Shown here: positions 45,001 through 48,000 of the stretch, one piece after another
Layout of the letters: each line of letters starts with the position of its first letter
Numbering within the stretch: the first letter of the stretch is position 1
NCBI RefSeq assembly: GCF_024298765.1
Contig: NZ_CP101211.1
DNA: 64,000 nucleotides
Source of the DNA: Escherichia coli
GTDB taxonomy: Bacteria; Pseudomonadota; Gammaproteobacteria; Enterobacterales; Enterobacteriaceae
Direction: 5' to 3' (one strand)
Position numbers: made by a program

Positions 45001-48000
45001 TTTCGATCACGGCACGATCATCGTGCGGGAGGGCAAGGGCTCCAAGGATCGGGCCTTGATGTTACCCGAGAGCTTGGCACCCAGCCTGCGCGAGCAGCTG
45101 TCGCGTGCACGGGCATGGTGGCTGAAGGACCAGGCCGAGGGCCGCAGCGGCGTTGCGCTTCCCGACGCCCTTGAGCGGAAGTATCCGCGCGCCGGGCATT
45201 CCTGGCCGTGGTTCTGGGTTTTTGCGCAGCACACGCATTCGACCGATCCACGGAGCGGTGTCGTGCGTCGCCATCACATGTATGACCAGACCTTTCAGCG
45301 CGCCTTCAAACGTGCCGTAGAAGGCACTGTTGCAAAGTTAGCGATGAGGCAGCCTTTTGTCTTATTCAAAGGCCTTACATTTCAAAAACTCTGCTTACCA
45401 GGCGCATTTCGCCCAGGGGATCACCATAATAAAATGCTGAGGCCTGGCCTTTGCGTAGTGCACGCATCACCTCAATACCTTTGATGGTGGCGTAAGCCGT
45501 CTTCATGGATTTAAATCCCAGCGTGGCGCCGATTATCCGTTTCAGTTTGCCATGATCGCATTCAATCACGTTGTTCCGGTACTTAATCTGTCGGTGTTCA
45601 ACGTCAGACGGGCACCGGCCTTCGCGTTTGAGCAGAGCAAGCGCGCGACCATAGGCGGGCGCTTTATCCGTGTTGATGAATCGCGGGATCTGCCACTTCT
45701 TCACGTTGTTGAGGATTTTACCCAGAAACCGGTATGCAGCTTTGCTGTTACGACGGGAGGAGAGATAAAAATCGACAGTGCGGCCCCGGCTGTCGACGGC
45801 CCGGTACAGATACGCCCAGCGGCCATTGACCTTCACGTAGGTTTCATCCATGTGCCACGGGCAAAGATCGGAAGGGTTACGCCAGTACCAGCGCAGCCGT
45901 TTTTCCATTTCAGGCGCATAACGCTGAACCCAGCGGTAAATCGTGGAGTGATCGACATTCACTCCGCGTTCAGCCAGCATCTCCTGCAGCTCACGGTAAC
46001 TGATGCCGTATTTGCAGTACCAGCGTACGGCCCACAGAATGATGTCACGCTGAAAATGCCGGCCTTTGAATGGGTTCATGTGCAGCTCCATCAGCAAAAG
46101 GGGATGATAAGTTTATCACCACCGACTATTTGCAACAGTGCCCGTCGGCTTGAGATGCACATGTTGGCTGAGGTCGCCGGGTAGCGTGAACAGGCGCGGA
46201 CCGTCCCGAAACTGGAACACGCGATACAGATGGAATTGATCGCCCGCCTCCTTGGAGAATTCGAGTTCGTTGTGGCTGACCAAGAAAGACGAGCCTACCC
46301 CGCCATTGGTGGTTTTCACCTCGATGAAGCGCTCATGGGCGTCCTCTTCGAACGACAGGATGTCGAACCCCGCACCGTCTCCCTGGGTGTCGGACACCCA
46401 ATCCAGCCGCTGAAAAAGCTCTGGGTGGCCGAGCTCGGTCAGGCGTTGCTGTTCGTAGCCAATCACCCACTGCTCCCCTGCCCGGCCCAGCTTGCGGTTG
46501 GCTTCATCGCGAGCGGCATAATCGAACTTTCGCGGTAGGCGTTGCCGTAGAGATGCCGGGGTACGCACAAGCACTTCACGGGCGGGTGGTTCTACCAAAG
46601 CCGCTCGGTAGGTTTTGTCACCCGGAAGTTTTACCTCCTCCAGGGCATCGACAAGAGCGCCGACCGTCTGCTGATGTTCCAGAACGTAGGCGTGTACGGA
46701 TTTACGCAGCAGCAGTTGGCTGTTGCCGCGTGGCTTGTAGCCGTTGATATAGGGCAGGCCCAGGGCATCGAGTACGGCGCTAATGTTCTGGTGCTTGAGC
46801 TCGACTGAAGACTTGCTGCGACCGTTCAGCAGTTGGCGCAGTGCCTGGTTGTGCTCGGACTTGTTGTACGGCTCCCCAGCCGCCTCGGCACGCAGCATGT
46901 CGAAATAGTCTTCGACCGTGGCCAGGACCTCTTCTTCGGACCAGTCTTCGCCGATGCGAATGATGCGAAACCCGAGCCGCGTCAGCGCCGGAACGACGGT
47001 CGCCTCGCCACCGGAGAAGCTGTCAGCAGTGAGCGGGCCCTGCTCGGGAAATTGCTTGCCGAAGGCCACACCGGCGATGGCCTTGGAATCGCAATCGGTG
47101 CCGGTCTTCGGATCACGTACCAGGAAGTCGCGGGACTTGCCGTAGCCGTGGCGCGCCAGGAATTTCGTGCGGCCCAGTTGCACGAACTCATCGATGGCAG
47201 CCTGCACGGCGGCGGGGCTTCGAAGCAGGGAGAGTTGAGACACAGGGTCCTTCCTTACTGTCATGGTGTGCCGGGAACCGCCGAGCCACGAGATTATGAG
47301 TAGCCCCTGAACAGAAACGTCACGATAAAAGCCGTGAACGCCACCAGGCCCATTAAATCCCTTGCGTATTTGCAGCCCGTGCTGTCCAAACCTGTACCAG
47401 GTCCGATCAACACGCTCCAACCATTGAGGTACGAAAACACCGCCTGACCGAACAAAAAATGCGTGATAGCCGCCGCAGCCATGACGCCGGAATCGTCAGA
47501 CAGGCTGTAGCTGTTGACCATTGCCCTGTACGCCTGCATCTGAAATGGCTATTGCCCTGATGGGAGCCGGCTTTTCAGCCACCGACACCAGCGATGCCGT
47601 CAATATTCTTTACCCGATAACCATGACCGTACAAGCTAACAAGGCCTGGCAAGCCAGCGGACTTAAAAAGTCTTTTTTTCTACCATCCCACAAAAAAGTT
47701 CGTGGTGGAGAAAAGATAAGCTATGCAAGGCTTTAGGAGACGTGGTTTTTCAGGATGACGAAGAACGATTCGGCGCTAGGTGCAACATAGGTGCATCGCA
47801 CGAGCGCTAGGAACGGCGAAAAAAGGCGGACGTGGCGAAATCGGTAGACGCAGCAGACTTTAAAATTGGAGTGCCCGCGGGGAAATCCGCGGAGTAGAAC
47901 CGCTCAAAGTCGGGGAACGCTAACGGGCAATACCCTAAGCCAATCCCGAGCCAAGCCCCTTCGGGGGAAGGTGTAGAGACTGGACGGGCGGCGCCTAAAG

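Follow-up and report, generated by a model that had tools for sequence, protein, structure and literature searches.

The window analysed here, a 64,000-nt stretch of Escherichia coli DNA (contig NZ_CP101211.1), carries a copy of the aac(3)-II/tmrB resistance module, which is widespread. Within this module lies the gene known in the literature as orf1182, treated there as an anonymous ORF in the module order aacC2-tmrB-orf192-orf228-orf1182-ISCfr1 (PMC7096625). The open frame spans positions 46116–47264 on the minus strand (ORF list), and its native part, as judged from the ORF list and the translation, comprises codons 1–367 counted from the GTG at 47243 (46143..47243, minus strand). This is a real gene that had been annotated before, with the RefSeq product label ‘DUF3883 domain-containing protein’; the call is correct, and the gene is an ordinary passenger. 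A reading made from the sequence alone (the sequence-only reading) had placed the minus-strand ORF at 46143–47264. Native DNA does begin at exactly 46143, but the start codon is likely GTG 47243 and not ATG 47264, because a Shine-Dalgarno-like motif (AAGGAAGGA, 47248..47256, minus strand) stands ahead of the GTG, the 378-aa chromosomal homologues begin with ATG or GTG at the aligned position, and RefSeq uses the same start. The same motif, AAGGAAGGA, precedes the GTG start of a homologue at locus L006.

The 3′ end of orf1182 is truncated by an 820-bp IS26 (45323..46142, minus strand), delimited by its inverted repeats and transposase ORFs. The terminal inverted repeat occupies 46129–46142, so that native DNA starts at 46143. 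Intact copies of orf1182 encode 378 aa with the C-terminus ...HLKPTDYRASFRSLVG; the copy in pEC21-2 ends DYRASFRSLVG. Comparison with the intact pEC21-2 copy shows that in the window codon 367 is joined to an IS26-encoded replacement tail, GTVANSRW plus stop (46116..46142, minus strand). Thus 11 of the 378 native codons are swapped for eight IS26 codons, giving a 375-aa fused protein in which 367 of 378 residues are native. The earlier view of a near-complete gene from which IS26 takes no more than a few final codons is borne out by comparison with full-length homologues, which have 378 aa: the loss is 11 codons and no large C-terminal domain is gone. One plasmid considered as a source of an intact copy, pTH164-1 (H6), was ruled out, as it has the same IS26 junction and a partial IS26 duplication.

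The tmrB-like AAA ATPase gene (48218..48760) and aac(3)-IId (48776..49633), both on the minus strand and identified through RefSeq/PLSDB annotation of identical plasmid DNA, are the selected cargo of the module. A second IS26 (49898..50717), an identical 820-bp sequence, has the same orientation as the 45323–46142 copy. The two direct, identical elements and the 3,755 bp with aac(3)-IId between them form a pseudo-compound transposon; the 8-bp flanks of the elements differ, hence there is no target-site duplication. The window segment is 99.9–100% identical at the nucleotide level to the published module, for which GenBank JX101693 is the aacC2-tmrB reference and whose complete form was first found in pEl1573 (PMC7096625). 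In comparison with the complete module, the window lacks ISCfr1 and the last 11 codons of orf1182, which IS26 removed.

Intact or clipped, orf1182 is carried by about 1,200 PLSDB plasmids and by 600 of 5,426 complete E. coli genomes (about 11%). In an even sample of 60 plasmid records, 36 had the intact gene, 19 had this exact IS26 junction and five had larger deletions; the intact 378-aa form is present in roughly 60% of the ∼1,200 carrier PLSDB plasmids. The plasmid copies are at least 99% identical, which indicates recent spread and is uninformative on selection either way.

A tRNA-Leu(UAA) gene (47826..48124, plus strand) is interrupted after U34 by a group I intron of 213 nt (47861–48073). 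The Rfam Intron_gpI match (36.8 bits, E-value 8e-7) is below the gathering score of 50. ARAGORN in default mode reported no tRNA; the tRNA-Stop it reported in intron mode was rejected, the intron being misplaced, and the manually spliced exons gave a canonical 86-nt tRNA-Leu(taa). A literature search turned up no account of a group I intron within the module. The nuclease gene is separated from the tRNA gene by an orphan spacer (47265..47825) holding orf228 (47294–47521, minus strand) and orf192 (47545–47736, plus strand), with a GC content of 45–50% against 57–63% across the nuclease gene, tRNA, tmrB and aac(3)-II. Neither the ∼560-bp spacer nor the orf228 product has a homologue outside copies of the module, and nothing in the spacer resembles the flanks of orf1182 homologues at the DNA or protein level. 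A search for a progenitor with the 81-aa upstream ORF matched copies of the module alone, the seemingly ‘divergent’ ones being assemblies of that plasmid region with many errors. A consensus-only scan of 46000–48300 recognised no sigma-70-like promoter.

Domains of the orf1182 protein

The translated minus-strand ORF contains the segments FDIL, ERFIEVKTT and FHLYRVFQF, which the sequence-only reading had taken as a PD-(D/E)xK motif block of DUF3883 type. Profile searches agree with this assignment: Pfam NOV_C (PF13020, formerly DUF3883) was matched with 77 bits against a gathering cut-off of 22.1 bits (E-value 1.2e-21, profile positions 1–90 of 91), a score far outside the range of chance. DUF3883 has been placed in the PD-(D/E)XK superfamily (PMC3424549). 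The nuclease domain covers aa 242–367 (46143..46520, minus strand), and the alpha-beta-beta-beta-alpha-beta core fold is present; the AF2 model of the protein has a pLDDT of 92.3. The catalytic residues E257, D294, E308 and K310 (codons 46473–46475, 46362–46364, 46320–46322 and 46314–46316, minus strand), the last two forming E308-x-K310, have all been kept in the window copy, and none of them varies among the 61 homologues aligned.

The N-terminal region, previously left unassigned, can be assigned as well. A ScoMcrA_N head domain (PF26345; about aa 1–96; 46956..47243, minus strand), matched in both sequence and structure, is followed by a helical middle domain (about aa 98–203; 46635..46952, minus strand) made of a homeodomain-like three-helix bundle and a helical hairpin and bearing a conserved W..Y...E.KHQNISAVL motif. 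An NCBIfam search assigned the protein to no family, and profile searches found no HNH, SRA or SBD family in it; the only match to the PADLOC mREase_IV profile, on aa 18–102, is weak (E-value 0.0015). The product of orf1182 is a predicted three-part DNA endonuclease, with a ScoMcrA-type head, a homeodomain-like helical domain and a minimal Hjc-like PD-(D/E)xK nuclease.

The protein matched 8,116 cluster representatives at E-value ≤1e-3 and 778 at ≤1e-30. Residues ∼98–375 make the conserved core of a large family, the PADLOC candidate PDC-S36 (model PDLC05008), to which aa 105–375 of the ATG-start translation match with 345.6 bits (E-value 6e-104, profile positions 4–274 of 280). The core occurs alone (∼280 aa) or fused to interchangeable N-terminal modules; one member, P0222, carries the modified-base reader EVE (36.9 bits), which the orf1182 protein does not have. 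PDC-S36 is a single-gene phage defence candidate among 145 candidate PDC systems (Payne et al., bioRxiv 10.1101/2024.01.29.577857); a literature search on PDC-S36 found nothing.

The tail lost to IS26 carries a conserved Y/F-R-A motif (Y/F/W369 in 60 and A371 in 54 of the 61 homologues), and no aligned homologue stops short of it, which makes the activity of the window copy doubtful. Still, in the AF2 model the tail is coil and not a core strand, and Pfam NOV_C ends before it, so that, judged by the model, the fused protein may still be able to fold and cut DNA.

Chromosomal relatives and their neighbourhoods

The closest chromosomal relatives are 378-aa proteins of Stutzerimonas and Pseudomonas with 84–90% amino acid identity. 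At the DNA level only 46144–47242 is shared, with 83.8% identity to Stutzerimonas loci; the homology does not extend beyond ∼30 nt upstream of the start codon, and a helicase gene takes over there in the relatives. This gene, immediately upstream of the nuclease gene, encodes a ∼1,720-aa double helicase (RecQ-like plus UvrD-like). All of the loci extending far enough upstream (L003–L006 and L009–L011, about eight) have the giant helicase, represented by three distinct homologous proteins. In L003 the helicase gene occupies 4810–9999 and the two genes are spaced by 1 nt, and in the closest relatives they are probably co-transcribed. The 64-kb window has no helicase gene (tblastn with the three helicase homologues, best E-value 0.15). 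More distant homologues (65–70% amino acid identity) occur without the giant helicase, so the nuclease may not need it.

In L003, as in the plasmids, an ISCfr1-like IS lies downstream of the nuclease gene (92.8% nucleotide identity over 1,785 nt, same orientation). Neighbours of the homologues include Gabija-like genes, integrases, a methylase/MORC-like ATPase and HNH/UvrD genes; for distant family members the context comes from short contigs only. The defence-island ancestry suspected from the sequence alone is supported by these defence-type neighbours together with the PDC-S36 match.

History and activity of orf1182

In the reading that we prefer, with a probability of about 75%, orf1182 encodes a predicted three-part endonuclease derived from a Pseudomonas/Stutzerimonas-type island, and the window copy is most likely an unselected passenger of doubtful activity, as it has no operon partner and no recognisable sigma-70 promoter and has lost its C-terminal motif. 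Judging from its domains, the protein would bind DNA through the helical domain and cut it in a metal-dependent manner, as in a type IV-style restriction or defence nuclease. The N-terminal module may act as a sensor or adaptor; since no function is known for the head of ScoMcrA, the sensor role is an inference. The nuclease of the closest relatives would probably work with the double helicase encoded next to it. According to this history, which is partly shown, orf1182 and an ISCfr1-type IS would have left a Pseudomonas/Stutzerimonas-type defence island together and then been joined to unrelated DNA (tRNA-Leu, tmrB and aac(3)-II) with loss of the helicase; in the window lineage IS26 would later have replaced the last 11 codons.

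A different origin was proposed in the sequence-only reading, under which nuclease gene, spacer and tRNA gene were captured whole, as a single stretch of a tRNA-linked chromosomal hotspot for integration or defence. The intron-containing tRNA-Leu(UAA) gene is indeed real and only ∼580 bp from the nuclease gene, homologues do sit in integrase-bearing islands, and the nuclease gene, tRNA, tmrB and aac(3)-II have similar GC content (57–63%). However, the chromosomal homology stops ∼30 nt upstream of the start, at the relatives’ helicase gene, and the nearest tRNA/intron relatives among the matches listed (79–87% nucleotide identity; search with the intron core motif in GTDB genomes) are Alphaproteobacteria, as against Stutzerimonas/Pseudomonas for the nuclease; these two facts leave the tRNA argument for a whole-segment origin unsupported. 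Moreover, no tmrB, aac(3) or DUF3883 gene is linked in the flanks of the listed alphaproteobacterial tRNA-Leu loci, no tRNA gene lies beside the orf1182 homologues at the inspected loci, and orf228 in the spacer is without homologues elsewhere. We therefore regard capture of the whole segment as very unlikely; judged by its sequence relationships, the nuclease-spacer-tRNA segment looks mosaic.

With regard to activity, the window copy could itself be an active stand-alone defence nuclease (type IV-like, or anti-phage/anti-plasmid) that benefits aac(3)-II plasmids, the 11-codon swap being harmless. It keeps all catalytic residues and the whole NOV_C domain, the model shows the exchanged tail as coil, PADLOC defines PDC-S36 as a one-gene candidate, distant homologues lack the helicase, and precisely this IS26 fusion recurs often (19 of the 60 sampled records). 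We nevertheless think it unlikely: every aligned homologue keeps the tail motif, larger IS26 deletions into orf1182 also circulate, the consensus-only scan of 46000–48300 found no promoter-like site, the closest relatives are tightly coupled to the helicase (1-nt spacing in L003), and hitch-hiking with aac(3)-II inside the IS26 pair accounts for how common the fused form is. A non-nuclease role in vivo, as a DNA-binding regulator or an addiction/toxin component using the PD-(D/E)xK fold for binding only, would fit the homeodomain-like HTH domain and the proposal that some HTH-fused PD-(D/E)xK families are regulators (PMC3424549). It appears highly improbable, given that the invariance of E257, D294, E308 and K310 in all 61 diverse homologues favours catalysis, that there is no conserved antitoxin-like partner, that the neighbourhoods are of defence type and that endonuclease activity is known for a DUF3883 enzyme. 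For the intact gene, one may speculate that it is an active, unrecognised stand-alone defence nuclease, acting against phages or incoming DNA, whose head and homeodomain-like modules would be a new DNA-state sensor; in Pseudomonas/Stutzerimonas it would then pair with the double helicase, as effector in a two-gene system of a novel type. We consider this rather unlikely.

As it stands, the gain from the preferred, passenger reading is annotation detail on a resistance module that is already well known: orf1182 receives a domain assignment, the orf1182-ISCfr1 pair is traced to a probable source in a Pseudomonas/Stutzerimonas island, and there is evidence that the module is mosaic. If intact orf1182 were active, a common aminoglycoside-resistance module would be a mobile immunity module too, and the PADLOC candidate family could be tested on a gene that is easy to obtain and ubiquitous in the clinic; that immunity and aminoglycoside resistance travel together on IS26/ISCfr1 units could then be part of why the module has spread. 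For such tests the window copy, being both clipped and orphaned, is the poorest choice.

Among known systems, PDC-S36 is matched over nearly the full length of its HMM, with homologues in defence-island neighbourhoods. The orf1182 protein differs by the extra ScoMcrA_N head before the 280-aa core, and its window copy by the absence of the last ∼6 profile positions, lost to IS26. The probable two-gene helicase-nuclease defence operon of the chromosomal relatives, which is analogous to Hachiman, is absent from the window. The C-terminal DUF3883 nuclease regions of Tiamat (TmtA) and PD-T4-1 match aa ∼240–355 (E-values 1.8e-17 to 1.7e-5), but of the TmtA profiles in PADLOC, 1,300–1,650 positions long, no more than the C-terminal ∼110 residues are covered, and the PD-T4-1 profile is matched in part; the ATPase and other regions of these proteins, which are much larger or of another kind, are missing from the orf1182 protein. 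Sequence identity to the archaeal Holliday-junction resolvase Hjc and to I-Ssp6803I, RecU, NhoI and VRR-NUC is only 10–18%, and Hjc and the minimal PD-(D/E)xK nucleases have other biological roles and no accessory domains like those of orf1182.

With ScoMcrA, the type IV phosphorothioate/5mC-dependent restriction endonuclease of Streptomyces coelicolor (PDB 5ZMM), only the head domain aligns. The orf1182 protein lacks the SBD, SRA and HNH domains and has a PD-(D/E)xK nuclease in place of HNH, and no specificity can be transferred, since the shared head has no known function even in ScoMcrA. The YenY4I/McaZI group of modification-dependent restriction enzymes has a C-terminal DUF3883 PD-(D/E)xK domain after DNA-reading domains, and its enzymes tend toward defence islands, sometimes beside NTPases or helicases; YenY4I itself cuts modified-cytosine DNA (PMC6765204). 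The orf1182 protein shares the C-terminal nuclease with this group and differs in the domains ahead of it, which are PUA and DUF3427 readers in YenY4I/McaZI and ScoMcrA_N with the homeodomain-like domain in orf1182.

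Extent and clipped end of the nuclease gene

The core of the sequence-only reading was confirmed: the minus-strand gene (orf1182) is a nearly complete gene for a PD-(D/E)xK nuclease with a DUF3883 domain and a defence-island ancestry. The window's copy is a passenger gene, clipped and orphaned, and it is doubtful whether it is active. The ORF runs from ATG 47264 or GTG 47243 to a stop at 46116; with the terminal inverted repeat of IS26 at 46129-46142, native DNA starts at 46143, exactly where it had been placed. The motifs quoted earlier were found in the translation. Of the two possible starts, GTG 47243 is most likely the true one: AAGGAAGGA stands before it, 378-aa homologues start at the aligned position with ATG or GTG (in one case 1 nt past the stop of the gene upstream), and RefSeq uses it as well. 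A consensus scan of 46000-48300 found no sigma-70-like promoter. Codon 6 of the GTG-start protein (47226-47228) encodes Leu in the window and Gln in plasmids pTH164-1 and pEC21-2 (SLL vs SQL), the sole amino-acid difference in the native part between the window and these two copies.

The intact copy in pEC21-2 encodes 378 aa ending in ...HLKPTDYRASFRSLVG, and chromosomal homologues have 378-380 aa. In the window residues 368-378 are swapped for eight IS26-encoded residues; no large domain has gone, and the statement that IS26 removed only the last few codons was right. In an alignment of 61 sequences 60 have Y, F or W at position 369 and 54 have Ala at position 371, and none stops short of the tail motif; most representative hits of the HMMER search also run through it, the exceptions being a few fragmentary ones. 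AF2 models the tail as an ordered coil beyond the last core strand (pLDDT ∼87 dropping to 75). The lost tail is, as judged by sequence, more than neutral filler. Plasmid pTH164-1 was considered as a source of a longer, intact copy and rejected, as it has the same IS26 junction; beside that junction (locus L001, 4044-4400) the IS26 end is partly duplicated in tandem.

Plasmid spread and make-up of the module

The segment 46143-49897 is bounded by two identical, directly oriented IS26 copies with no target-site duplications, and is a typical IS26 pseudo-compound unit. The ancestral order was described as ‘aacC2-tmrB-orf192-orf228-orf1182-ISCfr1’, with no function given to orf1182 (PMC7096625); RefSeq labels its product ‘DUF3883 domain-containing protein’. 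The gene is present in about 1,190-1,220 PLSDB plasmids and in 600 of 5,426 complete E. coli genomes. Gene forms were scored in 60 records spaced evenly down the ranking: 36 carry the intact gene, 19 the IS26 junction exactly as in the window and five larger deletions. The copies are at least 99% identical, and thus too young to reveal selection or decay.

Paired terminal repeats indicate eight complete IS26 copies in the 64 kb (10856-11675, 18142-18961, 41723-42542, 45323-46142, 49898-50717, 56019-56838, 59336-60155 and 61046-61865) and two lone ends (655-668 and 7577-7590); the stretch is a multiresistance region unusually dense in IS26. A full-length match to the RNA-OUT antisense RNA (RF00240, 98.8 bits) lies at 49714-49783 on the minus strand, where AT-rich DNA separates aac(3)-IId from the right-hand IS26; it suggests a remnant end of an IS10/IS4-family element.

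The module also carries, within a clinical resistance setting, a plus-strand tRNA-Leu(UAA) gene (47826-48124) in which U34 is followed by a 213-nt group I intron (47861-48073; Rfam 36.8 bits, E 8e-7, under the gathering score). Spliced in silico, the exons fold into a canonical 86-nt tRNA-Leu ending in CCA; the literature searched made no mention of this gene. From the nuclease gene's place beside a tRNA gene the sequence-only reading had proposed that the segment comes from a chromosomal defence or integration hotspot, a proposal that found no support. The window's DNA resembles that of the Stutzerimonas loci over 46144-47242 only; a further ∼30 nt of leader upstream can be aligned by eye with one of them (L006), and beyond it the sequence is unrelated to the relatives' helicase gene. 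In the ∼560-bp spacer, homologues of orf228 (47294-47521, minus strand) were found only in copies of the module itself, and many of these are frameshifted in assemblies rich in errors. This ORF and orf192 (47545-47736, plus strand) are annotated as hypothetical genes in a region of lower GC (45-50%); both look doubtful as genes and the region may be non-coding. Relatives of the tRNA were sought among GTDB genomes with the intron core motif. Among the matches listed, the best for the tRNA with its intron all come from tRNA-Leu loci of Alphaproteobacteria (79-87% nt identity: a Rhodobacterales MAG 87%, Allosphingosinicella 83%, Phenylobacterium 82.5%, Sphingomonas 79%), with DUF3883, tmrB and aac(3) absent from their flanks. 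The tRNA and nuclease genes do not appear to share ancestry; given the limited upstream similarity, the orphan orf228 and the tRNA relatives, the module looks mosaic, and its true donor may be unsampled.

Chromosomal relatives and a probable helicase partner

The closest chromosomal homologues (378 aa, 84-90% aa identity) are from Stutzerimonas and Pseudomonas. Eight loci (L003-L006 and L009-L011, encoding three distinct proteins) had enough upstream sequence to be informative; they lie in islands that also hold integrases and Gabija-like genes, and in all eight a gene for a 1,714-1,731-aa protein lies directly upstream (4810-9999 in L003, 4763-9907 in L006, 4804-9999 in L009), with a gap of 1 nt in L003 and of 93 nt in L006. 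This protein combines an unassigned ∼280-aa N-terminus, a RecQ/DpdF/PsyrT-like DEAD helicase and a GajB-like UvrD helicase; no PADLOC model matched it at full length. Helicase and nuclease may form an undescribed two-gene system. More distant homologues lack the giant helicase: the neighbours are a C5 methylase, a MORC-like ATPase and a PLD-like gene in P. putida (70% aa), and HIT, HNH and UvrD genes together with integrases in Variovorax (65% aa). No trace of the helicase was found in the window. It appears to be a partner specific to one lineage, and not universally required. The defence-type neighbours of close and distant homologues thus support the proposed defence-island origin.

Most plasmids carry the gene intact, with ISCfr1 after it. 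The chromosomal homologue in Stutzerimonas kunmingensis (L003) has an ISCfr1-like IS1182-family element just downstream (11152-12900, compared with 1-2965 of L002 from pEC21-2; 92.8% nt identity over 1,785 nt). Its orientation agrees with that on the plasmids and its position does so to within ∼20 nt, which argues that the orf1182-ISCfr1 pair formed in, or was exchanged with, such an island.

Protein family and known defence systems

The protein matches Pfam NOV_C (PF13020, former DUF3883) with E 1.2e-21 and 77 bits against a cut-off of 22.1, in agreement with the nuclease identity proposed earlier. An all-against-library HMMER search matched 8,116 cluster representatives at E≤1e-3; the gene is therefore real and belongs to a large family. 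The PADLOC PDC-S36 model matches residues ∼98-368 (E 6e-104, profile positions 4-274 of 280), and the N-terminus, left unassigned before, can be assigned. Among the representatives the ∼280-aa core stands alone or follows various N-terminal extensions; in one member (P0222) the extension is an EVE modified-base reader (36.9 bits), in agreement with the precomputed label. Modification-dependent (type IV-like) restriction enzymes typically have a DNA-binding-plus-nuclease core and swappable N-terminal modules, and we infer from this architecture that the family reads as an enzyme of that kind.

DUF3883 was placed in the PD-(D/E)XK superfamily by Steczkiewicz et al. (PMC3424549), and cleavage by the DUF3883-bearing enzyme YenY4I depends on modified cytosine (PMC6765204). 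The gene is already annotated and its family is a catalogued PADLOC candidate; PDC systems were picked out by ‘guilt-by-embedding’ within loci for BREX, DISARM and type I RM, and their source calls them untested candidates (bioRxiv 10.1101/2024.01.29.577857). The literature searched made no mention of PDC-S36. The remaining interest lies in the intact version, unusually widespread in clinical Enterobacterales, and in the helicase-coupled chromosomal form. As for known systems, the PADLOC matches to Tiamat TmtA and PD-T4-1 are limited to the nuclease module.
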